Shown: one piece after another, positions 8,470 through 57,667 of the stretch
How positions within the stretch are numbered: position 1 is the stretch's first letter
Layout: each line of letters starts with the position of its first letter
Virus record (IMG/VR): IMGVR_UViG_3300044846_005229
Span: 143,986-207,985 of that record
Origin: a virus
DNA: 64,000 nt
Direction: 5' to 3' (one strand)
The notes under the pieces: generated by a model
Database searches by the model: none
What the model was told of the DNA's origin: nothing
Seen by the model: the letters and a program-made list of their open reading frames with translations, nothing else
Translations under genes and position numbers: made by a program

Positions 8470-8475
8470 ATGCAC

Positions 8476-9975: not shown

Positions 9976-9981
9976 AAGGGG

Positions 9982-10011: not shown

Positions 10012-10019
10012 AAGCAAAC

Positions 10020-10080
10020 AATCAGAGAAGGGGCGGGGTAGCCCTGAAGACGAAAAATGTCGCCACGGCCCCTACTTGCA
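10020..10080 (+). ncRNA. candidate small RNA, copy 2 (AAGGGGCGGGGTAGCCCTGAAGACGAAAAATGTCGCCACGGCCCCT...)
   Basis: Paralog of 8485-8540; contains a potential AGGGGC...GCCCCT closing stem. Confidence 0.45.
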
Positions 10081-10084
10081 ATTA

Positions 10085-10440
10085 AAGAGTTTATGCCATT
10101 GAGTTTATGCCATGGTGCATTTTGCGAGTAATGTAGAAGTCTAGGGTGTGTTTTCGGAGTTAATGTAGAATGCCAAGGGTGCTTTTTCTGGGTAATGTGG
10201 AAACCCCCAAATTGAAAATCGAAAATTCATTCCCTGAGATCCGTTGCAGGGCAACGGAGTTACTCCTAAAATTTTTGAATTTTTTAGGACCTAATGAAAA
10301 AACGATCCAAAAGTTCCACATTTGAATGCAAATTCTGCACCCTACTATCATATATTCGCGAAAAGTATATTTAATAGAAGACTCTTATGTATAGTTCCAT
10401 AACCAATAAGAAATCCTTATCACTGCACCCTCCATTCAAA
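10085..10440 (+). repeat. composite repeat module copy C (partial: one IR element with three GTGC.TTTT..G.GTAATGT.GAA direct repeats, hairpins GGAGTTACTCC and CCTAAAA...TTTTAGG)
   Basis: Homologous to the IR elements of modules A and B; lacks the internal promoter and array. Confidence 0.8.
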
Positions 10441-10441
10441 G

Positions 10442-10663
10442 TCAATCCACAGCCAACTCAAAGTCAACCTCAAAGGGGCCATCCCAATCCTGAGCCCATT
10501 GGGGGGCGCCCATGAAGCGAAGATCGTCCGACTGATGAGAGAATGGTTCAGGAACCGTGTCAACTACACAGACCCAAGTTGGAAGATTCTCCCGACGCAC
10601 GGGGTGGGCAGTGTCCCCGATCCATTCTTGAGCCAGGAAGGTGCAGCGTAGGGTGTGTGCCAT
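10442..10663 (-). CDS. hypothetical protein (73 aa)
   Basis: ORF track; promoter-like tagtttagcatgg ... gtcaaccccc at 10690-10740. Confidence 0.45.
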   Translation of the reverse strand: MAHTLRCTFLAQEWIGDTAHPVRRENLPTWVCVVDTVPEPFSHQSDDLRFMGAPQWAQDWDGPFEVDFELAVD

Positions 10664-10815
10664 TGTGAGGTCGGTGGGTTTCGGTTGGTATGGGCCTAGT
10701 TTAGCATGGTTGCCGTGGGAGCGTCAACCCCCTAGCTTCAAGGATTGGCAAGCATGGGGCCGGGAGTGCGTCAACCTATCGGCAACAACTCCACGGCCCC
10801 CAGCCCTGACAGCAA

Positions 10816-11199
10816 TCAGCGCCGGTACAAATATCCCCCAGCCCAATCAGCCCGCTGATAGCAACTCTCAGGGTCCTCCAACAAATTGTAACGAATTCCT
10901 TTGGCAGGAGACTTCCAATTGGCTGCCTTGTAAACGTCCCCGGTTACCCGATCGATGAAAGCATGAATAGAACGATTGCCGGACGTTGACATTATGATTT
11001 TCAGATACTTGCGCCCTTCCTCCACTGAGAATATCGGGGCATAACCCTTGCCAACCCCATCAGGATTAAACCGCGCCGAGCTATCAGCCAGAACCGCGCA
11101 TAGCTTGAGGGTGGCGGTGAGAACCGGGCTAGGTGCCTTAGGGGTGGTAACCTCAGGGGCGGTAGCTTCGGGATTCGTGGCCAGTTCGGTAGCAATCAT
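10816..11199 (-). CDS. hypothetical protein (127 aa), start moved to MIATELATNPEA
   Basis: ORF track 10816..11298; N-terminal 33 aa judged non-coding (GC-rich, no promoter spacing). Confidence 0.45.
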   Translation of the reverse strand: MIATELATNPEATAPEVTTPKAPSPVLTATLKLCAVLADSSARFNPDGVGKGYAPIFSVEEGRKYLKIIMSTSGNRSIHAFIDRVTGDVYKAANWKSPAKGIRYNLLEDPESCYQRADWAGGYLYRR

Positions 11200-11459
11200 G
11201 GCGGGTCGGGAACGGCGGTGTTTGGTTCCTTGCCATTTTACACCATTGGAACCCGGATCGTCAAGGGGCCACCAGGGGAATTGCCGAGGTATTGTCAAGG
11301 CATCGTCAAGGGGCCATCAGGGTCCGCTAAGGAAGCCATGCGACCAAAAAACACACAAAGTCAAGGGACCCCACCGAGCCGAGGCTCAGAAACCCAGTCA
11401 CTGTCAGGGATTTTCCCTTACTGTGGTTGTCTTCATTTGAGAATGCCCTAGGTGGGTGT

Positions 11460-11720
11460 TCCTAATTGTTGTTACCAAAGTTTCAAACCTGAAAAATTGA
11501 AAAATTTGAATTTATTATATTTTTCTATTATACCAACACACTATAATGTCATAATGCCATAACAGTATAACACTATCGTTATATGAGCATAAAGTCATTT
11601 TGATCTTGGGGGGCACCTTGACACTACATATCATGGCACCGTCTCACAGTAACTTCATTGCGCTAACACTATGCCATCATAACACTATCGTTATACGATT
11701 ATAGAGTCATTAACCCTGGG
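11460..11720. other. AT-rich non-coding region with direct repeats (ATAACACTATCGTTATA(T/C)GA x2, CATAA(C/T) runs); candidate origin or regulatory region
   Basis: Sharp GC drop; no ORFs; repeats seen directly. Confidence 0.4.
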
Positions 11721-11807
11721 GACTAAAGCGTGTCTGGGGGGCATAGGAGTAATGTGGCGCGGTAAGTTGCCAGTGGGCGATGATTATGGTATAGGCAGAC
11801 CCGGCAA

Positions 11808-12116
11808 TCAGGCGGATACCTCTTGTTTGGTTAGCCAGGCTTCTACGGCAGCCAGCGCCGACGGGGGGACCATGCGATGGCCGACGGGCTGCCATGAGTG
11901 ACTGGCCCATCCGCCGGCAGGCTGCTCATGCCATTCAGTCAACCTGCGGAACATATAGAAAACCGCTGTTTCATTAAGCGACAGTAAATCAGGAAAATAC
12001 TGATACTCTACCCGAAAAAGGAGATACCAAGAAAAAGCGTTTCTGGGCCAGGCTTGGACGGTCAAGCCGCTGGCGGGGTCAGTGTAGACGGTTGTAACGG
12101 CAAGGGTGTTGGTCAT
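11808..12116 (-). CDS. hypothetical protein (102 aa)
   Basis: ORF track only. Confidence 0.4.
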   Translation of the reverse strand: MTNTLAVTTVYTDPASGLTVQAWPRNAFSWYLLFRVEYQYFPDLLSLNETAVFYMFRRLTEWHEQPAGGWASHSWQPVGHRMVPPSALAAVEAWLTKQEVSA

Positions 12117-20518: not shown

Positions 20519-21442
20519 TCAAACCCAATCCTCAGCTTCTTTCCGAGTCATATAGAAATGAATACCGTTAGTACACTCAATCCGAATATCGTCATCATAA
20601 CTATCTGCAACCACAATCTCGCCTTCCTCGTATTCAAGGGCATTCCAAGTATGGATAGGGGAGTTGCCGGACCCTTCCAAGACTAAAACATGGGACGCCC
20701 TACATTTCCTACCCACCAATGTAGAAGTTCTCTTAGCATCTTCTGGGATCAGGATTTTGATAACCCCTGTATCAACTTTTTTGAACGCAATAAATGACCC
20801 CTCCTCTGGGACTAATTGAAAGGGGGGAAGAGTTGCACCCCGGAGATCAGCACCCTGGAGAATAGCACCCCGGAGAATAGCACCCCGAAGATTAGCATCC
20901 CGGAGATCAGCATCCTGGAGATCAGCACCCCGGAGATCAGCACCCTGGAGAATAGCACCCCGGAGAATAGCACCCCGGAGATCAGCACCCCGAAGATTAG
21001 CATCCCGGAGATCAGCTTCCTGGAGATTAGCACCCCGGAGATCAGCACCCCGAAGATTAGCATCCCGGAGATTAGCACCCTGGAGATCAGCATCCCGGAG
21101 AATAGCACCCCGGAGATCAGCATCCTGGAGATTAGCACCCCGGAGAATAGCACCCCGGAGATCAGCACCCCGGAGATCAGCATCCCGGAGAATAGCACCC
21201 TGGAGAATAGCACCCTGGAGAATAGCACCCCGGAGATCAGCACCCCAGAGAATAGCACCCTGGAGATCAGCACCCCGAAGATTAGCATCCCGGAGATCAG
21301 CATCCTGGAGATTAGCACCCCGGAGATCAGAAAACGGCCCAATAACGTACTCAGACCCGTTGATTAGCATTGTTTTGGAAGACATTGTTTTTGGAGAATG
21401 GGTATTGGTGGGGGGTTGATTGGGAGCGGTTTGCCCTGGCAA
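20519..21442 (-). CDS. pentapeptide-repeat protein (about 40 A(D/N)LRG repeats) with N- and C-terminal non-repeat domains
   Basis: ORF track; 15-nt DNA periodicity. The opposite-strand and alternative-frame ORFs here (20812..21342, 20816..21367) are repeat artefacts. Palindromic AAGTATAAATAC motif at about 21525 and consensus promoter at 21455-21495. Confidence 0.8.
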   Translation of the reverse strand: MPGQTAPNQPPTNTHSPKTMSSKTMLINGSEYVIGPFSDLRGANLQDADLRDANLRGADLQGAILWGADLRGAILQGAILQGAILRDADLRGADLRGAILRGANLQDADLRGAILRDADLQGANLRDANLRGADLRGANLQEADLRDANLRGADLRGAILRGAILQGADLRGADLQDADLRDANLRGAILRGAILQGADLRGATLPPFQLVPEEGSFIAFKKVDTGVIKILIPEDAKRTSTLVGRKCRASHVLVLEGSGNSPIHTWNALEYEEGEIVVADSYDDDIRIECTNGIHFYMTRKEAEDWV

Positions 21443-23142: not shown

Positions 23143-24570
23143 TTACCCCGAAACCCTGACATCCCTAATCTCTATACCCTCAGCTTCCAGCAACTCCCGG
23201 AGCCTATCTGCCTCCTTAAAATCACGGTTAGCCCTTGCGATATTACGTTTTTCAATTAGTGCTTGAATACCATCGCTTTTTGGTTTTTGAGGTGCGGGAA
23301 CCTCATGAACTAATCCTAAAATTCCGGCCAATTCACATAAGAGCCTCCAACGATTTAGAATTTCCCTATTTTCATCGCCCGCTGATACGATGGGGCGAGC
23401 CAAATAGAACAATTCCCCGATGGCTACAGACGTATTAAGATCATCATTGAGTGCCGAAATGAAACGATCTTGACTATTTTTTAAGTCTGTAGTTAAAATC
23501 AAGGGTTCATTCGTTTGCTGACTATCGCCATGTTGACTAATTCCATGCCGACTAACATCATGCTGACTAGCCCCATGCCAACTATCACCATGCCAACCAA
23601 ACCCCAATGCAGCATTTAATACTTTCCAACCATTGATCGCGGGCACCATTGCTTCCGAATTAAAATCTATCGGCTTTCTATAGTGGGCTTGTAATACGAA
23701 TAATCTAATGGTCATAGGGCTAATTCCTGATCCAATTAGGTCTCTGATGGTTGTGAAATTCCCTAAGGATTTAGCCATTTTCTCTTCCCCAACCGTGACA
23801 AACCCATTATGAAGCCAATACCTGGCTAGTTCAGCCCCATTGGCGGCCTCCGACTGGGCTATCTCGTTTTCGTGGTGAGGAAAGATCAGGTCGGCTCCGC
23901 CCAAATGAATGTCAATCGTGTCGCCCAACTCCCCGCGCACCATAGCCGAACATTCAATGTGCCAGCCGGGACGGCCCCACCCCCATGGTGACGGGTACCC
24001 ATGGTCAATAGGCATTGCCCCTTTCCAAAGAGCAAAATCAAAAGGGTGGCCCTTCTTTGAGTCGCTATTAACCTGTTGTTGGCCAAGGTTGCGACCACTT
24101 AGTTTCCCGTACCCCTTAAACCCCACAACCGAGAAGTACATATCACCACCCATAGAATAAGCAAACCCTTTATCAGCAAGGTCTTGAATCATGGTGCGGA
24201 TTGCATCAAGACTACGGGTAACCCTTGGCATTTTGTCGGCAGGCAGGATGTTCAATGTGCCCATGTCTTCCTCAAAGGCCTTAATATTGCGCTCACTGAC
24301 GGCCCCGATTGTTACTCCTTCGGAGTTGGCTTTGGCTAGAATTTTATCGTCGATATCCGTATAATTTTGAACAAACGTAACCTCATACCCATGCCACATA
24401 AAATTACGCCTTAAGACATCCCACACGATATAACTACGGGCGTGCCCTAAGTGGCATAGATCATAAACGGTAACACCGCAACAATACATCGACACTTTGC
24501 CTGGAACCAGCGGGATAAACTTCTCTTTGGTTTTAGTTAGGGTGTTGGTTAGGGTAATGTCGTTAATCAT
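23143..24570 (-). CDS. cysS: cysteinyl-tRNA synthetase (class I; HIGH = CHLGHARSY, KMSKS = KMAKSLGN) with a low-complexity insertion WHGDSWHGASQHDVSRHGISQHGDSQQ
   Basis: Full-length alignment-level similarity to CysRS (zinc ligands and anticodon-binding region present). The insertion is encoded by about 15-nt tandem DNA repeats (catgYYgactaRYM) at about 23520-23600. Confidence 0.9.
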   Translation of the reverse strand: MINDITLTNTLTKTKEKFIPLVPGKVSMYCCGVTVYDLCHLGHARSYIVWDVLRRNFMWHGYEVTFVQNYTDIDDKILAKANSEGVTIGAVSERNIKAFEEDMGTLNILPADKMPRVTRSLDAIRTMIQDLADKGFAYSMGGDMYFSVVGFKGYGKLSGRNLGQQQVNSDSKKGHPFDFALWKGAMPIDHGYPSPWGWGRPGWHIECSAMVRGELGDTIDIHLGGADLIFPHHENEIAQSEAANGAELARYWLHNGFVTVGEEKMAKSLGNFTTIRDLIGSGISPMTIRLFVLQAHYRKPIDFNSEAMVPAINGWKVLNAALGFGWHGDSWHGASQHDVSRHGISQHGDSQQTNEPLILTTDLKNSQDRFISALNDDLNTSVAIGELFYLARPIVSAGDENREILNRWRLLCELAGILGLVHEVPAPQKPKSDGIQALIEKRNIARANRDFKEADRLRELLEAEGIEIRDVRVSG

Positions 24571-34934: not shown

Positions 34935-35684
34935 TTACATTTTCATCGTGGCATCCAGACGCAAGCCCCCAGAGAAGATAACCTTAGCCATTGTGTCAGG
35001 CAGCGTCCCCAGTAGGTGCAGAGAGTCTAAAGTGGAAAACATAAACATTTTGTTAAGCTCTTCCCTTACCCTTTCCCTGGAGACGCAAGCTAGCATTTCT
35101 ACTGCCAAGTCACTGCGCAATACAGCATAAGTTTCATCATCGGGGACGAATCCTTTGGTAATTTGGAACCTGAACCCTCTTAGAACTCTGAGGCCGTCTT
35201 CTCTGATCCGGTCAGCAGGGTTCCCAACGAAACGAAGAATTTTATTCTTAACGTCGGAAACTCCCCCGAAAGGGTCAATCAGAGAGCCATCAATAGCTTT
35301 GGCGATTGCCCCACTGGTAAAGTCTCTTCTGGCCAAATCATCAAGTAAAGTCCCCGGCACCACCCAATCAGGACGGCGACCATCGGTGTAGGGGCCATCT
35401 TTGCGGGCTAGTACAAAGTCAGCGACGGTGGTGCGGGCTTCTAGCACATGGCCCTTTGGGACCCGCGCACGGATGGTTAGAAACTCACGGCGAGATTCGA
35501 AAATCTGGAAACCTTGCTCGGCAAGCTGAGCTTCCATTGCTAAGAAAGCGCTATCTGCCGTGGCGAAGACACCCTCGGGTGCAACAACGGAAAAATCAAT
35601 GTCCTTGGATGGAATCCCGAGCAAACTGTCACGGACGCACCCACCAACCTCAAAAAATTCAAATTTTTCTGCTTGGCTTGTCAC
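34935..35684 (-). CDS. class II tRNA nucleotidyltransferase (CCA-adding-enzyme-family) head/neck domain protein, only 249 aa
   Basis: GGCVRDSLLGIPSKDIDF, RRDFTSGAIA and DGSLIDPFGGVSDVKNKILRFVGNPADRIREDGLRVLRGFRF match the Pol-beta-superfamily CCA-enzyme head and neck motifs. Confidence 0.8.
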   Translation of the reverse strand: MTSQAEKFEFFEVGGCVRDSLLGIPSKDIDFSVVAPEGVFATADSAFLAMEAQLAEQGFQIFESRREFLTIRARVPKGHVLEARTTVADFVLARKDGPYTDGRRPDWVVPGTLLDDLARRDFTSGAIAKAIDGSLIDPFGGVSDVKNKILRFVGNPADRIREDGLRVLRGFRFQITKGFVPDDETYAVLRSDLAVEMLACVSRERVREELNKMFMFSTLDSLHLLGTLPDTMAKVIFSGGLRLDATMKM

Positions 35685-38073: not shown

Positions 38074-38796
38074 TCAACTAAAGATATCCACTGTTTCTTT
38101 TTTCTTAATCTGCCAGTAAGTGTCTCGTGTAGCATTATACGCAGTTAAAATACCTGAGAATACAGCCCCGGTATCAATCCCGATACGGTCATTAGTTATG
38201 TCCGGATCTTTACCTACGATAGTATGACCATGGACAACTCTCTTTATTTTGGCGGTCCATTCATGCAGTTCAGGTCCCAGGCTAAGGAATGGTTCACGTA
38301 TCCATAGTAGGTTGTCGGCCTTTTTAGTTTTAATTTGTTCAAAGGGATCATGCCCAGGAAACACTCCAGCATGAATAAACATTGTGTCCCCCACAGTCAT
38401 GTAGATAGGTAGTTGTTTGATCCATTCATAGTGATTGGCCTTCATGTCTTCAAACTGTTTAAGATTGCCGCCATTCTTCACCCAAAGCGTCAAAGAATTG
38501 TATCCCCACGAGGTTTCGGATCCTACAACAACATCCATAAACATACGCTCATGGTTACCCCTCAGCACATTGAAACTTTCTAGTCCTGCACTTTCGGGGT
38601 CATCCATAAGCTCCTTGACTTTGTTAAGGACCTTCATATCTTCCCCGCCACGATCTATCAAGTCCCCCAGCAGAATCACTCGCGCCCTGGTTCCATTAAG
38701 CCACTTTAATGCGGCAGCTAAAACATCATAACGAGCGTGGATGTCACCAATGGCTACTACATCACCGGCATTTACTTTTTTCCTTAGTTTAGTCAT
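38074..38796 (-). CDS. calcineurin-like metallophosphoesterase (PPP/lambda-phosphatase-type: GDIHARYD ... GDLIDRGGED ... GNHE)
   Basis: Canonical metallophosphatase motifs I-III; directly downstream of the P-loop kinase gene. Confidence 0.8.
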   Translation of the reverse strand: MTKLRKKVNAGDVVAIGDIHARYDVLAAALKWLNGTRARVILLGDLIDRGGEDMKVLNKVKELMDDPESAGLESFNVLRGNHERMFMDVVVGSETSWGYNSLTLWVKNGGNLKQFEDMKANHYEWIKQLPIYMTVGDTMFIHAGVFPGHDPFEQIKTKKADNLLWIREPFLSLGPELHEWTAKIKRVVHGHTIVGKDPDITNDRIGIDTGAVFSGILTAYNATRDTYWQIKKKETVDIFS

Positions 38797-38891
38797 TTTA
38801 CTTCGGGGGTTTTACTTTGGGGTTAATACTTCGGTATTTACCCTGTGGATATCCTATGGGTAATCTTGCGGGGTCACCATACGGGACCATA

Positions 38892-39389
38892 CTACGGACC
38901 CTTGCGGCAACCAACATATTCTACCATAGAAAAACCTTCCGTGTCAACCCCCCTTAAGGACGCTTGCAAGGCAGAGTGCATCTTTTCAATAACCAACTCA
39001 GGTACATTGCGACCCCTAGCTGCATTTTGCTTAAGACAAATTTCCAGGGGTGGATTCACTATGATGGCTCTAATGTTAGGGTACCCATAACTCTGGAGCA
39101 AAGCAATTGCATCCTTGCGGTATTTTGCCCTATAATGGGTGCCATCCATAATTAACACCTTACCAACATTTTCCTCTATCAGGTTTTCAATACGATCTTG
39201 AATAACCATCCATTCGCCCTGAATATTGGCATCCCCATATAATTCTGCTCGGATTTGGTCCCCGGAGAGGATTACTGCGTTTTCACGTTCAGCAAGCCTA
39301 GCAGCATAGGTGGATTTACCGGAGCCAGGGGCCCCTACCATGATGTAGGCGTAGTTGTGGTTGCAGGTGAGGGTGTTTATAGGGACCAT
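38892..39389 (-). CDS. P-loop nucleotide/polynucleotide kinase-like protein (GAPGSGKST Walker A), about 165 aa
   Basis: IMVGAPGSGKSTYAARLAERENAVILSGDQIRAELYGD resembles the Pnk/zeta-toxin-type AAA kinase fold. ATG directly preceded by a C11T11 tract; start moved from the track position. Confidence 0.65.
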   Translation of the reverse strand: MVPINTLTCNHNYAYIMVGAPGSGKSTYAARLAERENAVILSGDQIRAELYGDANIQGEWMVIQDRIENLIEENVGKVLIMDGTHYRAKYRKDAIALLQSYGYPNIRAIIVNPPLEICLKQNAARGRNVPELVIEKMHSALQASLRGVDTEGFSMVEYVGCRKGP

Positions 39390-39499
39390 AAAAAAAAAAA
39401 GGGGGGGGGGGTTCAAGGACCAGGAGTGTAGGGGTTCAAGGACCAAGGATGCCATAACCACATCAATTACACTTAGTATAGCATACCGCCAACCAAAGG

Positions 39500-39742
39500 T
39501 CAACGCCCGAAAGTCAAAAACCTATATCTATCCAACCAATCCTTTAGCAAATCATCATCTTCGACTACTTGGGAGTTTTGATTTACAAAATCTTCAACTA
39601 CCCACGCAACTTCTTTGAATTGCAATTCATTGCAATCCGGTTTGAATGAGACTTTGAGATTGGGGTATTTGGGTAGTATGGCCGCTAGTTGTGACTTTAG
39701 ACTTGATGGTGTGCTCATTTTGCAACTGCCGGGATTCAACAA
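39500..39742 (-). CDS. hypothetical protein (80 aa)
   Basis: ORF track. Confidence 0.45.
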   Translation of the reverse strand: MLNPGSCKMSTPSSLKSQLAAILPKYPNLKVSFKPDCNELQFKEVAWVVEDFVNQNSQVVEDDDLLKDWLDRYRFLTFGR

Positions 39743-40110: not shown

Positions 40111-40199
40111 AGGAAGAAGGGGGATTCGAACCCCCGGAGCCGCGAAAGCGACTCTGCAGTTTTCAAGACTGCTGCTATCAGCCACTCAGCCACTCTTCC
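40111..40199 (-). tRNA. tRNA-Ser(UGA), type II (long variable arm)
   Basis: Manual fold: acceptor GGAAGAG/TTCTTCC, D-arm, anticodon loop CUUGAAA, variable hairpin, T-loop GGGGGTTCGAATCCCCC. Confidence 0.75.
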
Positions 40200-42816: not shown

Positions 42817-42906
42817 TAGGCGCGTAGGGAATCGAACCCTAACTAGCCGGTAATCTGCCGGAGAGGTCTTCATAAGGGACCCTGTGCTACCGTACACCAC
42901 ACGCCC
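42817..42906 (-). tRNA. type II tRNA (long variable arm) with anticodon loop reading CUUAUGA (apparent UAU) and a C31:A39 mismatch; identity uncertain
   Basis: Manual fold: acceptor GGGCGTG/CGCGCCT (two G:U pairs), T-loop TAGGGTTCGATTCCCTA, variable hairpin CCGG-N7-CCGG. Anticodon assignment is not secure. Confidence 0.5.
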
Positions 42907-49867: not shown

Positions 49868-49980
49868 ATGGGACCAGTAGGATTTGAACCTACACCTCTC
49901 CTTTAACGTAGGAATTTAATTGCTGATGTATCTTTGACAAGATAACTTTCTTTAGCGCTCTGTCGTTGAGCTATGGTCCC
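49868..49980 (-). tRNA. tRNA-like gene with canonical acceptor, D and T arms and a candidate anticodon arm (TTCCT-ACGTTAA-AGGAG, GUU?), interrupted by an about 41-nt insertion between the D and anticodon arms
   Basis: GGGACCA-TA-GCTC-AACGACA-GAGC-G-[CTAAAGAAAGTTATCTTGTCAAAGATACATCAGCAATTAAA]-TTCCTACGTTAAAGGAG-AGGT-GTAGGTTCAAATCCTAC-TGGTCCC-A. The insertion contains its own hairpin TATCTT-GTCA-AAGATA. Confidence 0.5.
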
Positions 49981-50456
49981 TTGTTTGCTTCGCAAATAGC
50001 TTGTTGAAACATGGTTTAGCTAGATAGTTGGTTTTCCGATTTTGAAGGGGATGGTTGCTGAACTATCTACGTTTGCCGAAGGCAAAGTCGAAGAGGCAAG
50101 ATTCGAACTTGCGTATGGCGGTTCCTTTAGCGCATTTGGTGTTGCTGAGCTACCTAAAGCATAACTAGATAGTCCTTTTGCATTACCGCCGCCTTACCAC
50201 TTGGCTACTCTTCGTTTTGGGTGTCTGGGTGTCTTAACCGTTAAAGGTCAACAAGGTGAGTTTTGCTGGATTTGAACCATTCCCCTTTGTTGCCCTGGTG
50301 AACTACCAGGGAAGCTAACTTTATTTAAACAAGATGGTTGGTTTTTCTGTTACAAAGAAAGGTTAGATTGCTGAACCATCTTACGGGATTGCCTTACTTA
50401 CCGCCCATTAACCCTATTTCCATCAGGCGAATACCATACCCACAGAGTCATACCTT

Positions 50457-51929
50457 TCAGTATATACCGCGTCCCGCATCAGGGACAATGGGGGTAATTG
50501 CATTGCCGGTAAGAACTGCGGTCAGGATTGACGGAGAGCAACCGCTAACGAGAGCGGTACCGGAATCATGGACCTTCATCGGGACGTTATCTGAGGAATT
50601 GACATTCCAGAAGATGACATCAGGCAAGCTATAACCAGCTTGGGCATACTTGATTCGAATTGCTTCGTAGTTAGTGACTTTTTTTCCGCTATACCCCCAA
50701 CCAGAACCAGTGCCACCCATGACAACACAGTCATCAAACTGCATGTCTGAGACAATAATCAGTTTGCGGGGCATGTCTGACTCTGGAATGTTGTTCCGAA
50801 CTGCAGTATCCAGAATAAGGTCAAACGTCTTTTGGATGTCAGTGTTACCACCCCAATCTGCTCGGCTCAGGTTTCTAACCTTGCTGGAGAGACTATTGCC
50901 AGTCACAGTTTGTAGGGAGGGGTTACCCGAAAATGTTAGAAACTTGTTTTTCCAGATGCCAGTATTACGCTCTGCGATATACATCGCCAGAGAGATGGAT
51001 ACTGCCATCGGACGACCCTCCATGGAACCGCTAACATCGGCAACAACAAGCCCATTCAATTCCTTGCCTTCCATGTAGTTGGGTAGAGCCTGCCAGAGGA
51101 GTTCAAGAGTATCGTTTGATTCGTTGTTATAGAGACACTTCTCAACGATGTCATACGGGTACAAAGTACCGGCATTGATTTTTGCCTCGCCTTTCTTGAC
51201 TGCATCGAGGTAAGACTGGTAGCGAGCACCATCATGGTTAGCAAAAGCTTTCCGATACATGAAGCCTGCACGAGAAGGCAACTTGCTATACTCAATGGCG
51301 TCCCACTCACGGGCACACATTGGTTGTTCTACGATATTGATTTGGGTGCGAAGCGCAGTCAGGGCCTTGCGGTATTGACGCTCATTCCAACCCATTGCCT
51401 TAGCGATAAGACGGCCAACCCGCTTGGATTCCTTGCTAGAAGCGTTAATGGAAGGTAGCCATTTTGCTAGTAGTGACACTGGGTTTCCAACTTCGGTGTT
51501 CAGGTCAGTATTAAGCTGCGTCTTAATTGCTTCTAGGGCGATGACCCAAACTAGCGTCCCTTCGAGGGCCACAACATCGTCCCAGCGACCGTACTGCGGG
51601 ATCAGGCCTACCAGCTTAGCTCCAATGGTCGCATCATTGCGAACCAGCTCCTTGAAGACTTCCCGGAAGATTTTTCGTTCTCCTTGCCCAATCCCCCTAA
51701 TATCACGTGCCCAAAACAGGATCCGGGTCGCAGTTTCAGGATCTTCGGCATAGGCTGACTTAAAGAGTTTAATGGCTGCATCAACATTATCACGGCAAGC
51801 TGCGATTTTACCGAAAAGGTCTAGGTTCTTTTGGCCCGTGGACCTATAGGCCTTTGCGCCGTTTGCAGTTGTGGTGATATTGGAGTTGGTATCCAGTTGG
51901 TTCTCAAGTGCATTCAAAAAGGTTGTCAT
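50457..51929 (-). CDS. vWA-domain protein with a large N-terminal helical (TROVE/DUF2828-like) domain; Ro60/Rsr-like architecture
   Basis: MIDAS motif VVADVSGSMEG plus downstream vWA strands; N-terminal about 330-aa helical region. Start moved to MTTFLNALEN. Confidence 0.65.
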   Translation of the reverse strand: MTTFLNALENQLDTNSNITTTANGAKAYRSTGQKNLDLFGKIAACRDNVDAAIKLFKSAYAEDPETATRILFWARDIRGIGQGERKIFREVFKELVRNDATIGAKLVGLIPQYGRWDDVVALEGTLVWVIALEAIKTQLNTDLNTEVGNPVSLLAKWLPSINASSKESKRVGRLIAKAMGWNERQYRKALTALRTQINIVEQPMCAREWDAIEYSKLPSRAGFMYRKAFANHDGARYQSYLDAVKKGEAKINAGTLYPYDIVEKCLYNNESNDTLELLWQALPNYMEGKELNGLVVADVSGSMEGRPMAVSISLAMYIAERNTGIWKNKFLTFSGNPSLQTVTGNSLSSKVRNLSRADWGGNTDIQKTFDLILDTAVRNNIPESDMPRKLIIVSDMQFDDCVVMGGTGSGWGYSGKKVTNYEAIRIKYAQAGYSLPDVIFWNVNSSDNVPMKVHDSGTALVSGCSPSILTAVLTGNAITPIVPDAGRGIY

Positions 51930-52079
51930 TTTTCTTCTCTCAAGTTGATTGTTTTGTGTTTGTGTTTCGGATACAAATAATAGCTGTATCAACTTTGCCC
52001 CTAGGAGTTAATTTTAGGGGTGGTGGTGGGGGGCACTGACGGCCCCGATATTGGGCAGTTTGTAACTTAGCTGGGTCAA

Positions 52080-52369: not shown

Positions 52370-52912
52370 TTAGTACCCTAAATCGGGAGGAGCTTTGCCC
52401 CCAACTACAGCCGGTGAAAACCTAACTACGGTTACCTCCCCCATGTCCCCCAAATCTTCGGCAAACTTGTTCAAGCTAGCGAGAACCCTATCGGGGTTTC
52501 CACCTGCCAAACCACACCCAATCATTGGGAATCCGATTTTAACGGGAATTCTTGTTTCAGGGGGTAAACCCTGGCGACATACCTTAGCATATAACCTATT
52601 GAGAAATGTCTCAAAGGCTTCGTACTCAAATATGTCTTTGCCACGCCCAAATGTAAACTGGGTATAGGCGTTAATAATCGTAAAGCCACAACCATTTGCC
52701 CCCACAACGTCAACTTCGGAAAAGGTCCCGAGTTTATTCCGGGTGCCATACTTTGTCTGTCTATCGGCGATAGCCACCTCTGGCCACCTCTTCACAATTT
52801 GACCGGCGATACCGCTAGCCATCGTATGGAAGCAATTGGCACCATGACAAATAATGTCGAAGTCACCATTGTCTGCCATTGTGAGTAGGTTGTTGTCAAT
52901 AATTGTTAACAT
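52370..52912 (-). CDS. Macro-domain (ADP-ribose-binding/hydrolase) protein
   Basis: DFDIICHGANCFHTMASGIAGQI matches the N.AAN..L.GGGGV.GAI signature, and IGFPMIGCGLAGGNPDRVLASLNKF the C-terminal Macro motif. Confidence 0.7.
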   Translation of the reverse strand: MLTIIDNNLLTMADNGDFDIICHGANCFHTMASGIAGQIVKRWPEVAIADRQTKYGTRNKLGTFSEVDVVGANGCGFTIINAYTQFTFGRGKDIFEYEAFETFLNRLYAKVCRQGLPPETRIPVKIGFPMIGCGLAGGNPDRVLASLNKFAEDLGDMGEVTVVRFSPAVVGGKAPPDLGY

Positions 52913-52965
52913 CCGATTAGGTCCAATTTGGGTGGGGAATTTGTGAGATGGCGATACCCTACCAC

Positions 52966-53793
52966 TCAAAGTGGCGGGTGGTTAAGTTTATTGAGCACAT
53001 ATTCAAGTCTGGTGGGCTTTAGATCAAGGGGGATGTTATCTAAATTACCTGATGCGCCCGTACAATCGCCTTCTACTCCTGTGCAGTCCCCAATTAAGTT
53101 AGAGCAGTCCCCAATTAAGTTAATTACCCTCCCGTATAAACCAGTGCAATTGCCGGTTAGGCCAGAAATAAATCCCCTCAGATTGGAGCAATCACCAAAT
53201 AAATCCGGGTTAATGGTCCCTAAAGCCCCCGATAGGTCACCTGTTAATTTAGGGTTAATCATCCCTTTAACACCACTCAAGTCCCCGGTTAAGTCTTTAT
53301 TAAGAGTACCGGATAAGCGTCCCCATGGGTCAATACCTAAACCCATATTACCGTACAAATTAGAAACATCCCCCTCCAATGATGGCAAGATTCTTCCCCT
53401 AAGATCGGAGTTTATCTCACCTGTCAAATAACTCACATCTCCAATAAGCCTAGGATTGATCGTTCCACTGAGGTTAGAACAATCACCGAAGAGGAAAGGG
53501 CTTAGTTCGTCATAGGAGAGGCTCGGGTTTAACCCCTTTTGTACAGCCCCCTCACCATCTAACCAAAAAAATCTTTCGCTAGATTCAAAGAAGTCATGTA
53601 TCTTGCTTCTCATTTCTAAGATTTCCGGCTCCAGGGGTATTTGAGGGGTTGCTTCAAATAAGGGTACAAGCTTGCCAACCGCTTCATCCCATGCGTAAGG
53701 TGTACGGATATTGTCACCTAGCTTAAACCTGACTTCATTTAAGTCATAATAAAAGTCTAGCAGAACATTAAGATTGTCTTGTAACTGAGTCAT
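52966..53793 (-). CDS. repeat protein with about 14 tandem 11-residue G(D/N).S.L.G.I(N) units (LRR or beta-helix-like); possible fibre or adhesin
   Basis: ORF track; repeats visible at protein and DNA level; start moved to MTQLQDNLNV. Confidence 0.5.
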   Translation of the reverse strand: MTQLQDNLNVLLDFYYDLNEVRFKLGDNIRTPYAWDEAVGKLVPLFEATPQIPLEPEILEMRSKIHDFFESSERFFWLDGEGAVQKGLNPSLSYDELSPFLFGDCSNLSGTINPRLIGDVSYLTGEINSDLRGRILPSLEGDVSNLYGNMGLGIDPWGRLSGTLNKDLTGDLSGVKGMINPKLTGDLSGALGTINPDLFGDCSNLRGFISGLTGNCTGLYGRVINLIGDCSNLIGDCTGVEGDCTGASGNLDNIPLDLKPTRLEYVLNKLNHPPL

Positions 53794-53822
53794 ATGTTGG
53801 GAGTTTGTTGGTTTGTCAATCA

Positions 53823-53895
53823 AGGGGGCAAGGAATCGAACCCCCCCCCCCCCATCAGGCAGCAATACCCTGCGATGCCAACCATCGGTATGCCC
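53823..53895 (-). tRNA. degenerate tRNA-like remnant (T-loop GGTTCGATTCC, partial acceptor), disrupted by a C13/G13 homopolymer
   Basis: Manual inspection; T-stem and acceptor pairing incomplete. Overlapped by the C-terminus of ORF 53855..54097. Confidence 0.3.
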
Positions 53896-54093
53896 CAAGG
53901 CCGGAAGGAGAATCAGGTTCGGATGCTACGAGTTGACGAAGGGTACCAATCTGGGCCTTGCGGTTGCCTTCATAAATCACAAATACTGAAGCAAAACCGG
54001 AAACATCGTTAGTTCCGAAAAAGGCGCCGGGGGCTTGCATGGTGGTACGAATTGGGATGATGTTGTTGGTGGCGGTAGTAGCGGCGGAGGAGG

Positions 54094-54387
54094 TCATTGT
54101 GGGTTGGTAGTTTCTGAAGGGTTGAGAAGTTCAAACTTCAATTCATTGACATCATTAAGGGCACTCATTGCAGATCGAACGTAGGTATTAGAATTAGCCA
54201 ACCCCCAAGTAAGACCAGTGGCAACTTGTTCAATGGAATAACTACAAGCACCGTCTCGGTTAATTGCCCTTTCAGCCTCATCACAAGCTTCACGCATCGT
54301 TTTAATTGATAGGTGCAGATTGCGAATGATCCTTTCTTCTTGTTGTTGAAGTTGCCGCTCAATGATTATTTTGACTTTGGGATCCAT
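54094..54387 (-). CDS. hypothetical protein (97 aa), start moved to MDPKVKIIIE
   Basis: ORF track. Confidence 0.5.
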   Translation of the reverse strand: MDPKVKIIIERQLQQQEERIIRNLHLSIKTMREACDEAERAINRDGACSYSIEQVATGLTWGLANSNTYVRSAMSALNDVNELKFELLNPSETTNPQ

Positions 54388-54483
54388 TTTGATGGGTGTG
54401 TTTTTGAACAGGTGATGTAGTCGCGGGGTCAATACCATTGTAGGGTATGCCCACCCAATAATCAAGGGCGGTAAACCGACCAT

Positions 54484-54588
54484 TGCCCCTGGTTGAGGGT
54501 TCGGAGGAACTTAGCTGTATCCTCAATACATACCATTTAGTTGGATTCCCGATAAATGGCATTTAGTTGGATTCCCGATAAATGCGAT
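54484..54588. repeat. three tandem about 25-bp repeats CATTTAGTTGGATTCCCGATAAATG
   Basis: Seen directly; intergenic between 54589..54984 and 54094..54387. Confidence 0.7.
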
Positions 54589-54984
54589 TTAGCTGGATTC
54601 CCTATATTTGCTCCCGTTTGCTCTAAACTTGCGGCTGAGGCGTTCAAATTCCTTGCGATCCTTTTCATCTTGACTGGCTTTTAGCTTCTTGGCGTTTTCC
54701 CTCTTGATTCTCTCAGCTTCTTGCCATGTGGCTACGCGGGCTTCAAATTCTTCGTCCGTTTCTTCTGCATAGTGCCATGCTGTAAATTCCAAATCGCCGA
54801 TTAGGTAATCGTCACCCCATACCCGTACTAATAAATTAATTTTATCGTGGCCTTCGCTCTTGGCTTGTTGCAGTTTAGAAATGACTTCATCAATGTCGAT
54901 GTCATCACCATAGGTTAACAGATTAGGCAAATCTGTAAATTTGTAAATCTGCGTAAGTTTTTCAGTTGGTTTTTTAGTCATTTT
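54589..54984 (-). CDS. hypothetical protein (131 aa), start moved to MTKKPTEKLT
   Basis: ORF track. Confidence 0.5.
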   Translation of the reverse strand, partial: KMTKKPTEKLTQIYKFTDLPNLLTYGDDIDIDEVISKLQQAKSEGHDKINLLVRVWGDDYLIGDLEFTAWHYAEETDEEFEARVATWQEAERIKRENAKKLKASQDEKDRKEFERLSRKFRANGSKYRESS

Positions 54985-55013
54985 GCTATGGGAGATAGGG
55001 GGGTGGTTATGCT

Positions 55014-55238
55014 TTATTTGACTTTGCGAATGATGAGGGTAACCCCAAAACTGCAGCCGCATCCAATCATTTGATCCGACTCTATGCCCACAAGTTCATA
55101 ATCCGAATCGTCTTCGGGATCATCGGTGCAGACTAGCACATGGGCGGCGAGGCTATGGCTAGCAATCGTCCCATCCGGTTTCATACCAATGTCATCCAGA
55201 ATAAGGGAATATTCTCGGTTAAAGTCTTTTAGTTCCAT
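55014..55238 (-). CDS. hypothetical protein (74 aa; C-terminal CGCSFG), start at MELKDFNREY
   Basis: ORF track. Confidence 0.45.
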   Translation of the reverse strand: MELKDFNREYSLILDDIGMKPDGTIASHSLAAHVLVCTDDPEDDSDYELVGIESDQMIGCGCSFGVTLIIRKVK

Positions 55239-55277
55239 GTTATGTGGTTCAGGTTGAACTAGGCAAAGTCTAAACAA

Positions 55278-55730
55278 TCAAATCCCCATCGAAAGGTGCG
55301 CTTCATCGCGAATCCCCTCAAGGATGACCCCAAGTTTGTTGGCGCCATCTCCGGTCACAACATCAACACCCCAATAAGTGTCTCCCCAAGTGTTGCCTTC
55401 GATTAGCTTTGCGTTCCCTGTTTGTGCTAGGAGGTTTTTTAGATCTGGGTTCTGAAATTTAATGCGTAGTAACTCTTCCATAACTTTGTCTTTTCTAAGT
55501 TCCCACCCTATAGGGTCAAAGTCCTTTAAAATGCCGTTGCGGTTCCCGGCGGCTTTAGCCTCGCTTGGAGACTGCATCTTTGCGATTTGGTGGCGAGTTT
55601 CGGAGTCCTGAGTCTTAGCTGCTTGAAAGGCGTGTTCGACTGTGGGGTATTTGATCCCTTCGTATTCTAGAACGCTCTCATAAAAGTTTGACAGAAAGCT
55701 GAATTGGCCTGAGAATTTGGTAATGGTCAT
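55278..55730 (-). CDS. NADAR-domain (YbiA/DUF1768) protein
   Basis: FSFLSNFYESVLEYEGIKYPTVEHAFQAAK ... EGNTWGDTYWGV matches the NADAR signature. Start moved to MTITKFSG, giving an ATGA overlap with the upstream gene. Confidence 0.75.
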   Translation of the reverse strand: MTITKFSGQFSFLSNFYESVLEYEGIKYPTVEHAFQAAKTQDSETRHQIAKMQSPSEAKAAGNRNGILKDFDPIGWELRKDKVMEELLRIKFQNPDLKNLLAQTGNAKLIEGNTWGDTYWGVDVVTGDGANKLGVILEGIRDEAHLSMGI

Positions 55731-56077
55731 TTGTCTCCGAATTCGATAAACAGATTCATTTCCCAATAGTCAAATTGATCTTGGATGGCGTCCTTCGCTT
55801 CGTTGTATTCTTCCTCGGTAAGGCAGCCGGGGTTCTGATATAGGACCTTCATTCTTTCTAAAGAATTTTGCAGGCCCCGGATATATTCAGATTTGTACTT
55901 GCGTTTTTGGTATTCTTCCAAAGATTCCTTGACGCCGTCAGGCCAATAAATGGTGTCGGTTCGGGAGTCAAATCCTGGTAAGTCTCTGCTGAGGGCTTTG
56001 GAATTTTTAGCGGCTTGCTGATTGCACCATTCTTGTGCCCAGGAGAGTGGGCGAGTTGAGTCTGCTTCGAGTATCAT
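55727..56077 (-). CDS. hypothetical protein (116 aa), operon partner upstream of NADAR
   Basis: ORF track; 4-nt overlaps at both ends. Confidence 0.55.
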   Translation of the reverse strand: MILEADSTRPLSWAQEWCNQQAAKNSKALSRDLPGFDSRTDTIYWPDGVKESLEEYQKRKYKSEYIRGLQNSLERMKVLYQNPGCLTEEEYNEAKDAIQDQFDYWEMNLFIEFGDK

Positions 56078-56298
56078 TCTTTACCGTGAGGGTTGTAGTC
56101 TTTGTCGAGATTACATGTGACCCAGTTGATTTCATCTCGCATACTATACATTCTTCCGGACACAAAACCTCTCAGAAAAGTCTCAAAGGTTGAACCCAAA
56201 CGAATGTCATCTTCGGGGGTTTGTCCCCACATGGTGCGGAAGGCTTCGATTGCTTCCGGCGTGGTTCCGGGCGGATATAGGTAGGTAGTGACTGTCAT
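56074..56298 (-). CDS. hypothetical protein (74 aa), start moved to MTVTTYLYPP
   Basis: 4-nt overlaps with neighbouring genes. Confidence 0.45.
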   Translation of the reverse strand: MTVTTYLYPPGTTPEAIEAFRTMWGQTPEDDIRLGSTFETFLRGFVSGRMYSMRDEINWVTCNLDKDYNPHGKE

Positions 56299-56519
56299 GT
56301 GTTGTGAATGTTGGGGCGATGAATGTAGCAGGTAAGAGCAAGGAGTGTGATGCCGTATGACACCGGGATAGAATTCACAGGGGTTGACATGACCCCTACG
56401 GCCAAGGAAATACAAGCAATCAAACAATGGAAAGCAAAAATAATTGCTAGCTCCAGAGTGGAATTTCTTTGCCTATAACGGCGAATGTGCCAGTTTGCGT
56501 AGCGAATTAGGGGGAGCAT
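56295..56519 (-). CDS. small membrane protein (74 aa)
   Basis: ORF track; two hydrophobic segments. Confidence 0.4.
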   Translation of the reverse strand: MLPLIRYANWHIRRYRQRNSTLELAIIFAFHCLIACISLAVGVMSTPVNSIPVSYGITLLALTCYIHRPNIHNT

Positions 56520-56575: not shown

Positions 56576-57667
56576 TCAGCCACTCTTCTTCCCCTTAGAT
56601 AGCAACCACTCATTACTAATGGCCTTAAAGGAAAACTCAGAGTCATTGGACTTGAATACTAAGCCCTCACGTTTAACGTTAGGATTCATGGACGGGCCAT
56701 CGGCGTACGCTAGTAGCTCATCTAGGTTGGCGAAACTATCGGTTACACACATTGCGGGGTGTAGGACAGGGGCATGGGTTAAATCAGCGCCTAATGGAAC
56801 CAGGTACTTGTCCAAGAGGTTCATTCTGGCCCCTGGCTTCATGTAGGTCTGGTTGTCGATATCGAAGATGTCGAACAGATATAGCCGTTGTCCCTTGATT
56901 CCTTCCTGATTGCCCTGGATGCCTTCTCCAAGGGTTTCCGACTGCAAGGCAATACTGTGACCAGTCTTCCCATTGTATGCAAGCATAGCATCGATAATGC
57001 CCTGGTCCCTAGCAGCCTTCCAGAAACTATTGCCTTCGGTTTCCTTGAGATCAAGGTTACGGCTGCAAACCCCAATGTCACCGTCTTTGACGTAAATCGT
57101 ACATGAAGATCCGTCGAGCTTCAGGGTAACTTCGTAGGTCTCATTCCTGTGGGTCTCAAAGATTTCGCTAGCGATATTCTGACAACGTTCCTGGTCTGTC
57201 TTCACAAGGAAGCTCGGGAAGTTGCCTTTTGCAATGCCAGCCAAACAAGCCGGTACAGGAGCCTCCCATTTCTGAATGCCGAGAATTTCGGTTACGTCGT
57301 CTCCTTCCTGAAGGCCCCTCTCAAATGCGGTGACATAGTAACTGAAGTCTACATAGAGCTTTAGAGAAATAGGCAACAGCAACCCTTGGCTGAGTTGCCC
57401 ACGGAGCTTAACGGTCTTGAGACGTTCGCCCTTCACGCCGTTATACTCACGGGGCTCTTTCCCATTAGAAAGGAAGGGCGCCAACTCGTGAGGAATAAAT
57501 GAGTCGGGTTCTGCGTAAATTACCAAATCCCCTACTTCATACTTCCCCACAGAATCCACAACCCACCAGCCATTCACACGGTAGGCACAGATTCTATCGG
57601 CTTCAGGGATGGGGCGAATCTCAGCAATGCGCTGGACAGATGCAAGTTTGCGTTCGATGTTTGCCAT
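56576..57667 (-). CDS. ATP-dependent RNA (or DNA) ligase-family protein, nucleotidyltransferase motif I KLDGSS, with an N-terminal OB-like extension
   Basis: KxDG adenylyltransferase motif in VTLKLDGSSCTIYVK. N-terminal IAEIRPIPEADRI...VNGWWVV...KYEVGDLVIYAEPDSFIP resembles Rnl-family ligases with an N-terminal domain (pattern-level). Confidence 0.65.
   Translation of the reverse strand: MANIERKLASVQRIAEIRPIPEADRICAYRVNGWWVVDSVGKYEVGDLVIYAEPDSFIPHELAPFLSNGKEPREYNGVKGERLKTVKLRGQLSQGLLLPISLKLYVDFSYYVTAFERGLQEGDDVTEILGIQKWEAPVPACLAGIAKGNFPSFLVKTDQERCQNIASEIFETHRNETYEVTLKLDGSSCTIYVKDGDIGVCSRNLDLKETEGNSFWKAARDQGIIDAMLAYNGKTGHSIALQSETLGEGIQGNQEGIKGQRLYLFDIFDIDNQTYMKPGARMNLLDKYLVPLGADLTHAPVLHPAMCVTDSFANLDELLAYADGPSMNPNVKREGLVFKSNDSEFSFKAISNEWLLSKGKKSG

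Follow-up and report, generated by a model that had tools for sequence, protein, structure and literature searches.

The stretch of viral DNA analysed here, 64,000 nucleotides from positions 143,986 to 207,985 of the IMG/VR record IMGVR_UViG_3300044846_005229 and hereafter called the window, is part of an uncultivated jumbo phage whose genome measures about 279 kb; proteins identical to its own were found on metagenome contigs, the largest of which measures 279 kb. The guanine-plus-cytosine content of the window is about 45%, and almost all of its genes are located on the minus strand. Among them are a gene for a protein with a NADAR domain and, close by, a gene whose product contains a Macro domain, and it is with this pair and its neighbours that the present analysis is concerned. 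An earlier note, made by a model from the letters alone, had read the pair as a candidate module of two ADP-ribosylation erasers. That both domains are encoded is borne out, for NADAR by Pfam and for Macro by a structural model and profile searches. The two genes are the following:

Positions 55278-55730, minus strand: NADAR gene, 150 amino acids from its ATG start codon, with a YbiA-type active site (Pfam, PDB and NCBIfam).
Positions 52370-52912, minus strand: Macro-domain gene, 180 amino acids, of the Poa1p/Adpp-like 'phosphatase' family (PHROG, AlphaFold, Foldseek and profile search).

The NADAR protein passes the cut-off of the corresponding Pfam family (PF08719; E = 2.8e-25; 89.9 bits with a cut-off of 35.1) and just passes that of NCBIfam TIGR02464 (76.9 bits; cut-off 73.7); in the PDB it matches E. 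coli YbiA (2b3w; E = 1.2e-17) and a Phytophthora NADAR (8bau; E = 5e-6). Its active-site residues are E32, K39, E111, D117 and W120, the first four of which are invariant, and the last nearly so, in an alignment of 108 NADAR homologues. E32, K39 and E111 align to E43, K50 and E125 of PnNADAR, which contact the distal ribose and the pyrophosphate and are important for catalysis (PMC11543638). The position of PnNADAR E125 is diagnostic, as it is occupied by Asp in DarG1 antitoxins and by His in the NADARs of T4-like phages (PMC11543638). The window protein possesses a Glu at this position (E111), which is the YbiA type, and it shows the features by which the YbiA subfamily is defined; it has no N-terminal extension, and its YbiA-like core begins at about residue 9.

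The T5-like phage HdH2 has a NADAR to which that of the window is 46% identical over the full length (E = 2e-40); the HdH2 gene in turn exhibits 98% nucleotide identity to that of phage IrisVonRoten, which is phage Bas32 of the BASEL collection. The active-site motif LIEGNTWGDTYWG and the E..K pair are identical in the window NADAR and in the T5-like Bas32-type protein. In E. coli, DarT1 is neutralised by AdfN(Bas32), which also lets DarTG1-sensitive phages grow again and is specific for the guanine adduct (PMC11825919); ADP-ribose on the guanines of RNA is removed by NADARs too (PMC11833690). The sole PADLOC match of the window NADAR is to PDC-M42C (1e-10), with no match to a DarG model, and its neighbours yielded no match to DarT or another ADP-ribosyltransferase in Pfam, PHROG or PADLOC. 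By homology, it is a stand-alone phage NADAR related to the validated AdfN(Bas32), and its most likely role is to reverse the ADP-ribosylation of guanine, as AdfN does.

For the Macro gene, the longest open reading frame (52370-52969, minus strand) extends beyond the likely start, which we place at the ATG at 52912, in agreement with the genes called on identical contigs and with how long the homologues are. The protein misses the cut-off of the Pfam Macro family (PF01661) by 1.3 bits (20.7 bits; cut-off 22) and matches PHROG 335, annotated as 'phosphatase', with E = 1.3e-43. Its AlphaFold model is a single domain (predicted local distance difference test score 88; predicted template modelling score 0.84), which Foldseek relates with a probability of 1.0 to the macrodomains of Poa1p, TARG1 and DarG, and in this model the Macro fold, with three α/β/α layers and two Gly-rich loops, is confirmed. 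A profile built from the family matches solved macrodomains in the PDB down to E = 2e-12, among them SCO6735 (5e3b; 6e-12) and M. tuberculosis DarG (2e-8). The ADP-ribose-binding motifs N26, G34-I35-A36 and P129-x-I-G-C-G-L-A-G-G138 are invariant or nearly so among 49 homologues. The loss of catalytic residues that the earlier note had named as an argument against its own proposal is thus not what was found: those of NADAR are all kept, and the ligand-binding motifs of Macro are intact.

What singles out a probable function for the Macro protein is its relation to Adpp of the Vibrio phage Gary, to which it is 29% identical (E = 1e-14; Adpp sequence from the preprint supplement) and with which it shares the motifs HxxNCF, GIA, KLG, (Y)xQ and IGCGLAGG. 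Adpp is a demonstrated ADP-ribose-1''-phosphate phosphatase; it converts this compound, which the defence NADase aRES produces, into ADP-ribose, letting the phage rebuild nicotinamide adenine dinucleotide (NAD+) (bioRxiv 10.64898/2026.01.28.702374). Searches with the window Macro and with Adpp each retrieve about 2,600-2,700 phage records, which are similarly distributed. In a hidden Markov model alignment to M. tuberculosis DarG, the 'T-K-K' segment of DarG lies opposite T84-Q85, which are invariant in the family; by our mapping, deduced from the chain numbering, Q85 would replace the catalytic Lys that is K80 in DarG and K84 in TARG1. F152 of Poa1p corresponds to the invariant A136 of the window Macro, a position that is presumably that of Asp125 in TARG1. 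PADLOC returned no DarG or other informative match for Macro, no DarT-binding domain is present in the 180-residue single-domain protein, and no DarT or ADP-ribosyltransferase match was obtained among its neighbours. The Macro protein most likely acts as a phosphatase of the Adpp/Poa1p type on ADP-ribose-1''-phosphate and not as an eraser of DNA modification.

The gene neighbourhoods of the Macro family were assessed in the 80 IMG/VR loci closest by Macro (67 distinct sequences), whose Macro proteins are 40-52% identical to that of the window, bar one close relative at 91%. A NadV/Namat-like gene on the same strand accompanies Macro in 47 of these 80 loci (44 within 2 kb and 20 within 300 nucleotides), a NatV-like NMNAT-Nudix gene is present in 45, and NatV and NadV occur together in 41; after the removal of duplicates, NadV/Namat is found in 39 of 67 loci, and both genes in 35 of 67. 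The usual order is NatV-Macro-NadV (for example in L103, 2025-5328, and L117, 8963-11905; L numbers are our handles for fetched loci and contigs), and Adps is present in only four of the 80 loci. The reverse check, centred on NadV, revealed this Macro within 3 kb in 42 of 80 loci. Some of the sampled loci belong to the broad phage group of the window, as exemplified by L103, the Band_7 protein of which matches that of the window at 4e-124. Together, these neighbourhoods constitute strong contextual evidence that the Macro family works on soluble NAD+ breakdown products. Adpp has been described in the literature only in Adps-Namat (NARP1) operons (bioRxiv 10.64898/2026.01.28.702374); in the aquatic viral contigs studied here, the NadV/NatV-linked Macro seems to be the commoner arrangement. 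The Adps-Adpp-Namat operon of phage Gary (L172; NC_055913, 104340-112813) has a pair of RNA ligase genes on its flanks, along with an ATPase and a phosphoesterase, so that genes for NAD+ reconstitution and for RNA repair are neighbours there too.

The window itself shows no such pathway. Neither an ADP-ribosyltransferase toxin, nor a riboflavin gene, nor an NAD+ salvage gene was found in it; walking past its ends led to short contigs with small unmatched genes only, among which no NAD+ genes were seen, and no NadV was among the matches listed for the contigs of the lineage (pattern-based scans with a single-protein and an alignment query). The earlier note had regarded a riboflavin or NAD context as evidence against a role in countering ADP-ribosylation: the riboflavin part is absent from the window, and the NAD+ salvage part exists among the relatives of Macro (41 of 80 loci), not in the window.

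NADAR is the last gene of a four-gene operon, p74b-p74a-p116-NADAR, whose ATGA start/stop overlaps (55727-55730, 56074-56077 and 56295-56298) are visible in the letters themselves and whose first gene begins 56 nucleotides past the stop codon of an RNA ligase gene. The tightly overlapped operon immediately downstream of the RNA ligase, as described in the earlier note, is thereby confirmed. Promoter and terminator scans of the region from 49.5 to 58.2 kb returned sites no more numerous than those in shuffled sequence, and the operon boundaries can therefore not be set by them. The operon partners of NADAR and the genes that separate it from Macro are as follows:

Positions 56295-56519, minus strand: p74b, 74 amino acids, first gene of the operon (from the sequence).
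Positions 56074-56298, minus strand: p74a, uncharacterised, 74 amino acids, with an ATGA overlap at each end (from the sequence and gene calls on identical contigs).
Positions 55727-56077, minus strand: p116, uncharacterised, translationally coupled to NADAR by an ATGA overlap (20 homologues).
Positions 52966-55238, minus strand: variable spacer between NADAR and Macro with five small genes of 74, 130, 129, 80 and 275 amino acids (gene calls).
Positions 52966-53793, minus strand: repeat protein of 275-310 amino acids, consisting mostly of repeats of about 11 residues, 'L-x-G-D-x-S-x-L-x-G-x' ('GDxSxLxG').

A database search with p116 found no more than 20 homologues, with identities of 55% or above and without exception in this lineage; they have a conserved core of about 80 residues that looks helical by eye, and the gene persists in a sister contig that has no NADAR. 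p74a is kept in the lineage contigs L008, L010 and L012, and p74b, likewise kept in the lineage, is probably a membrane protein with one clear hydrophobic segment at about residues 21-44; among the loci fetched, both matched close relatives only. p116 is without a match in Pfam, PHROG, PADLOC or NCBIfam, p74a has no family match, and p74b has no significant one in Pfam. The suggestion that these partners be inspected for toxin or antitoxin folds was followed through in the same four collections, and no signature of either kind emerged for any of the three. As judged from these comparisons, the three upstream operon genes are lineage-specific and carry no functional clue. The spacer genes lack a match in all four collections as well. 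L012, although otherwise syntenic, lacks the repeat protein, which is present in the window and in L002; L008 and L010 lack the spacer altogether, and in them Macro directly follows NADAR. The spacer genes are not part of a functional NADAR/Macro pair.

Whether NADAR and Macro form a module can be judged from the relatives of the window, among which the block RNA ligase-p74b-p74a-p116-NADAR is conserved. In sister contigs with a NADAR that is 79-88% identical to that of the window, Macro comes directly after NADAR and is only 47% identical to the Macro of the window; in the window and its closest relatives, Macro is found farther downstream, just before a small gene that is followed by a DUF2828 gene. 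In a third syntenic group, NADAR is missing, and Macro is retained together with p116-like and p74a-like genes. In a genome of about 279 kb, random placement would bring two genes to within 3.4 kb of each other in about 2% of cases, and the proximity of NADAR and Macro is probably not accidental because they are directly adjacent in the sister contigs. The assertion that they lie within 3 kb of each other thus holds as far as nearness goes, and is to be qualified by the five small genes that intervene.

Outside the lineage, at most two of 78 NADAR loci (one in a repeat scan) carry this Macro within 10 kb, and a NADAR lies near Macro in about six of 78 Macro loci, which is about the chance level for large phage genomes. 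The clustering of neighbours of distant NADAR genes yielded only heterogeneous nucleotide-metabolism or T5-specific genes. In two unrelated contigs, NADAR is located inside or beside a NatV-Macro-NadV operon: L097 (same contig as L184) has at 8452-11986 the four genes NatV, NADAR, Macro and NadV, in this order, as one operon in which start and stop codons overlap between NatV and NADAR and between NADAR and Macro; in L212, another NadV locus, a NADAR lies within 3 kb. NADAR and Macro are hence repeatedly kept close and yet are separable, and they represent a loose toolkit, not an obligate two-part system. The notion of an obligate two-gene module does not survive the sister group that has Macro alone, nor the scarcity of Macro at distant NADAR loci. 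A toxin-antitoxin module was likewise considered and was rejected, as no ADP-ribosyltransferase was detected beside either gene.

We suggest, with a probability of about one half, that the window encodes two separate ADP-ribose hydrolases that serve as a loose counter-defence toolkit, NADAR being of the AdfN type and Macro of the Adpp/Poa1p type. NADAR would be an orphan N-glycosidase that cuts ADP-ribose off guanine in phage DNA or RNA and would thereby neutralise guanine-specific ADP-ribosyltransferase defences, DarT1-like or other. Macro would remove the 1''-phosphate from ADP-ribose-1''-phosphate, a soluble NAD+ product of RES-type NADases, and would probably not erase ADP-ribose from DNA. 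The lineage would keep both genes close as a toolkit against NAD+- and ADP-ribose-based immunity, and both enzymes would sit in an accessory arm of the genome that is rich in RNA-repair genes. This explanation is founded on what was observed, namely which domains are present, that their motifs are intact, their homology to enzymes of validated activity and the conserved gene order, and from these we infer the substrates, the defences targeted and the host.

Several points weigh against it. In one study, the T4 NADAR and YbiA were active in vitro and did not rescue cells from DarT1 toxicity (PMC11125620), and homology is therefore no guarantee of an anti-DarT1 function. Among the closest solved relatives of the Macro family is SCO6735, reportedly a hydrolase of ADP-ribose linked to thymidine (PMC11833690), and the window Macro may accordingly be directed at DNA. 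No NadV, NatV or Adps gene is present within the 64-kb window, so that Macro is without a local partner pathway there. Finally, RNA-repair genes dominate the neighbourhood, which suggests a different context.

An alternative that we consider possible, if on the unlikely side, is that both proteins erase macromolecular ADP-ribose, NADAR from guanine (DarT1) and Macro from thymine (DarT2/DarG) or from protein, thus protecting phage DNA from both DarT classes. This is close to what the earlier note had proposed. It is in line with the Foldseek matches of the Macro model to DarG and TARG1, with the profile matches to M. tuberculosis DarG and to the thymidine-ADP-ribose hydrolase SCO6735, and with the DarG2-like macro antitoxin encoded by chimalliviruses (PMC13309987). 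It is weakened by the failure of PADLOC to report DarG for either protein, by T84-Q85 opposite the segment with the catalytic Lys of DarG (subject to the mapping of K80 given above), by the invariant Ala at what is presumably the position of TARG1 Asp125, by the lack of a DarT-binding domain in the single 180-residue domain, and by the NAD+ salvage genes that are the dominant neighbours of the Macro family. The idea of a pair of erasers of ADP-ribosylated DNA is therefore upheld only in part: it suits NADAR, given its 46% identity to the AdfN(Bas32) type, and is less apt for Macro, which by our mapping has a Gln in place of the catalytic Lys and whose nearest relatives mostly belong to NAD+ salvage operons; Macro as a DarG-like eraser also conflicts with its PADLOC result and its single-domain architecture.

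The dominance of salvage genes can be taken further. It is unlikely, in our estimate, that the pair forms the front end of an extended NARP2-type NAD+ route in which Macro would dephosphorylate ADP-ribose-1''-phosphate, NADAR would open cyclic, base-linked or amino-acid-linked ADP-ribose, and the Nudix domain of NatV, together with NadV, would recycle the resulting plain ADP-ribose to NAD+. A version in which both enzymes feed plain ADP-ribose to a NadV/NatV (NARP2-type) pathway encoded elsewhere in the phage genome, Macro by removing the 1''-phosphate and NADAR by opening cyclic, base-linked or histidine-linked ADP-ribose, we regard as rather unlikely. The operon NatV-NADAR-Macro-NadV of L097, the NADAR within 3 kb of NadV in L212, and NatV-Macro-NadV as the commonest arrangement of the Macro family are consistent with such a function, and Iyer et al. 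predicted that NADAR acts on N-glycosidic ADP-ribose derivatives and noted its NAD+ salvage neighbourhoods (PMC9503650). This is countered by the rarity of the NADAR-NadV link (only two of 80 NadV loci and three of 78 NADAR loci) and by the lack of salvage genes in the window and among the listed matches on the contigs of the lineage. To our knowledge, moreover, every demonstrated NADAR activity is on base-linked ADP-ribose in nucleic acids, bar that of YbiA on intermediates of the riboflavin pathway. If true, the front-end function would give NADAR a new role, in soluble signals or salvage, and would constitute the NadV/NatV counterpart of the published NARP1-AP pathway.

A further alternative is connected with the wider surroundings of the pair. 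The phage probably infects a cyanobacterium, and thus would be a cyanophage, a host that we assign by inference: the closest cultured relatives are the Synechococcus phages B3/B23 (57% identity for the DUF2828 protein and 44% for Macro), and S-CREM1 is a further one (60% identity for the RNA ligase). A megablast search of the region from 49 to 58 kb against 50,697 phage records returned no match. The minus strand of the window is rich in genes for RNA repair or related to tRNA, and it also encodes a Band_7 protein (Pfam). The features in question are:

Positions 56576-57667, minus strand: ATP-dependent RNA ligase with an N-terminal OB fold (PHA02142 and RNA_ligase domains, Pfam 1e-23 for both; PHROG 968 'RNA ligase', 3e-82).
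Positions 50457-51992, minus strand: DUF2828/DUF7788 vWA protein (Pfam).
Positions 50088-50214, minus strand: tRNA-like RNA (Rfam tRNA).
Positions 49869-49980, minus strand: tRNA-like RNA (Rfam tRNA).
Positions 40111-40199: tRNA-Ser, adjoining the kinase/metallophosphoesterase pair at 38074-39503.
Positions 38892-39503, minus strand: AAA_33/Zeta-like P-loop kinase (Pfam).
Positions 38074-38796, minus strand: metallophosphoesterase adjoining the P-loop kinase, one of two metallophosphoesterases on this strand (Pfam).
Positions 34935-35684, minus strand: CCA-adding-like nucleotidyltransferase with a PolyA_pol head domain (Pfam).
Positions 23143-24570, minus strand: class I cysteinyl-tRNA synthetase (E = 2e-119), with coordinates assigned by elimination on size only.
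One open reading frame between 1346 and 8670, minus strand: cREC 'cyclic-phosphate processing receiver' domain (Pfam; E = 2e-26).
Positions about 64015-64371, just past the end of the window: DUF4326 gene, mapped from L002 (1360-1716).

The two tRNA-like RNAs, with Rfam tRNA scores of 47.8 and 47.6 bits, are located directly downstream of the vWA gene. In both, the acceptor, D and T arms are complete and an insertion of 54 or 62 nucleotides replaces the anticodon stem-loop; ARAGORN called neither of them. Either tRNAs with an intron or mimics of tRNA, akin to Y RNA and working with a Ro/TROVE-like protein, would be conceivable. The DUF2828 vWA protein may be of this latter kind; a search of the PDB revealed no link of DUF2828 to Ro60 at the sequence level. 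The metallophosphoesterase at 38074-38796 and the adjoining kinase look like a split polynucleotide kinase-phosphatase for the healing of RNA ends. DUF4326 proteins have been predicted by others to process ADP-ribose-linked phosphates and are often fused to Macro, NADAR or SLOG domains, and relatives of the window carry a T4 Rnl1-like RNA ligase further upstream (L008, 1218-2096). A doubtful tRNA-Ile (anticodon TAT; 42817-42906, minus strand, 90 nucleotides) was reported by ARAGORN only and lies below the Rfam gathering threshold, and a pentapeptide-repeat protein with a C-terminal DUF5758 fusion is encoded at 20519-21442 (minus strand; E = 1e-65).

Amid such neighbours, NADAR and Macro might be housekeeping enzymes of RNA repair, an option that we judge to be quite unlikely. 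Macro, possibly together with the cREC protein, would clear the ADP-ribose 1''-2'' cyclic phosphate or 1''-phosphate that arises from an NAD+-dependent 2'-phosphotransferase during tRNA repair, and NADAR would serve the adjacent ligase by dealing with ADP-ribose by-products or with adducts on RNA. The RNA ligase, the DUF2828/vWA gene with its tRNA-like RNAs, the kinase/metallophosphoesterase pair near tRNA genes, the CCA-adding-like nucleotidyltransferase and the cREC domain, as well as DUF4326 past the window end and the Rnl1-like ligase of the relatives, would all fit; Poa1p performs this task in yeast tRNA splicing, and a link of this type has been proposed (PMC9503650). Set against this, Pfam scans of the minus-strand open reading frames of at least 110 amino acids, one of which covered the best 25 of 32 families, revealed no KptA/Tpt1, sirtuin or other ADP-ribosyltransferase, which weakens the RNA-repair reading of NADAR and Macro. 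In the loci of distant relatives that were fetched, the link to an RNA ligase is found only once in 78 on the NADAR side, and on the Macro side it takes second place to the link with NAD+ salvage. Furthermore, repair by a kinase/phosphatase and an ATP-dependent ligase, as in the T4 pathway, leaves no 2'-phosphate to be removed.

That NADAR is a YbiA-like damage-control N-glycosidase for intermediates of the riboflavin pathway, unrelated to defence, is suggested by its TIGR02464 score just above the cut-off, by YbiA as its best PDB match and by its YbiA-type Glu, and is very improbable in view of the lack of RibA/RibD or other riboflavin genes among the open reading frames of the window scanned with Pfam, the stand-alone position in a phage genome, the anti-DarT1 activity of the 46%-identical phage homologue (PMC11825919), and the in vitro hydrolysis of ADP-ribosyl-guanine by YbiA itself (PMC11125620).

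With the counter-defence toolkit of two separate hydrolases as the preferred explanation, the window contributes one more case, from an aquatic jumbo phage, to two classes of counter-defence enzymes that have been characterised only recently, the AdfN-type NADARs and the Adpp-type Macro phosphatases, and reveals one phage lineage that keeps NADAR and Macro close to each other while everything around them is reshuffled. The occurrence of the Macro family mainly in NatV-Macro-NadV and not in Adps-Namat operons also suggests that phosphatase-assisted rebuilding of NAD+ may extend to the NadV/NatV route. Current concepts are left unchanged; the value of the analysis lies in the annotation and in the candidate genes that it provides. 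Large phages that carry Macro together with NADAR, and the prediction that the two act in counter-defence, are already in the literature (PMC9503650, PMC7824862), and a possible NAD+-dependent branch of RNA repair in these phages has been proposed (PMC7824862, PMC9503650). The gene pair has hence been described before in large phages, and the window is a further example, not a new system.

When compared with known systems, the window NADAR resembles AdfN(Bas32), the anti-DarTG1 protein of the T5-like phage IrisVonRoten (Johannesman et al. 2025, PMC11825919), in being a stand-alone protein of about 150 residues that lacks an N-terminal extension, and differs from it in the type of phage, probably in the host, and in its place at the end of an overlapped operon behind an RNA ligase. 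E. coli YbiA, represented by TIGR02464, is its best solved relative by sequence and has the same type of catalytic Glu; unlike YbiA, it is encoded by a phage and is found in neither a riboflavin nor a LexA-operon context. The DarG antitoxins use the same two folds as the window pair, NADAR in DarG1 and a macrodomain in DarG2. DarG1 shares the guanine-ADP-ribose hydrolase chemistry of the NADARs, with an Asp where the window protein has a Glu, and it possesses a basic N-terminal extension and an adjacent DarT1, both of which are missing here; unlike DarG2 and TARG1, the window Macro has a Gln at the presumed position of the catalytic Lys and no DarT-binding domain.

Adpp of the Vibrio phage Gary, which belongs to the NARP1-AP pathway that counters aRES, is a member of the same PHROG 335 family as the window Macro, and Poa1p is the top structural match for both. 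Adpp is located between Adps and Namat, whereas the window has neither gene and the close relatives of its Macro mostly reside in NatV-Macro-NadV (NARP2-like) operons. Yeast Poa1p (PDB 6lfq/6lfr), the best Foldseek match of the window Macro (E = 8e-9; TM-score about 0.7), is the ADP-ribose 1''-phosphate phosphatase of yeast tRNA splicing (bioRxiv 10.64898/2026.01.28.702374). H23 of Poa1p aligns to H23 of Macro, and the NC motif is common to both; their overall identity is about 21%, S30 and F152 of Poa1p are T30 and A136 in Macro, and the Poa1p pathway involves a 2'-phosphotransferase, a context without a counterpart in the window.

The broadest frame of reference is the Macro-NADAR-SLOG-Nudix-DUF4326-cREC network of large phages delineated by Iyer, Burroughs and Aravind (2021, 2022), from which nothing categorical sets the window apart. 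Its gene set matches these surveys in Macro, NADAR, cREC, RNA ligases, the kinase/phosphoesterase pair, the putatively TROVE-like vWA protein with its tRNA-like RNAs and the DUF4326 gene beyond its end, and it differs from the surveyed members of the network in the lineage-specific partner genes that accompany NADAR.

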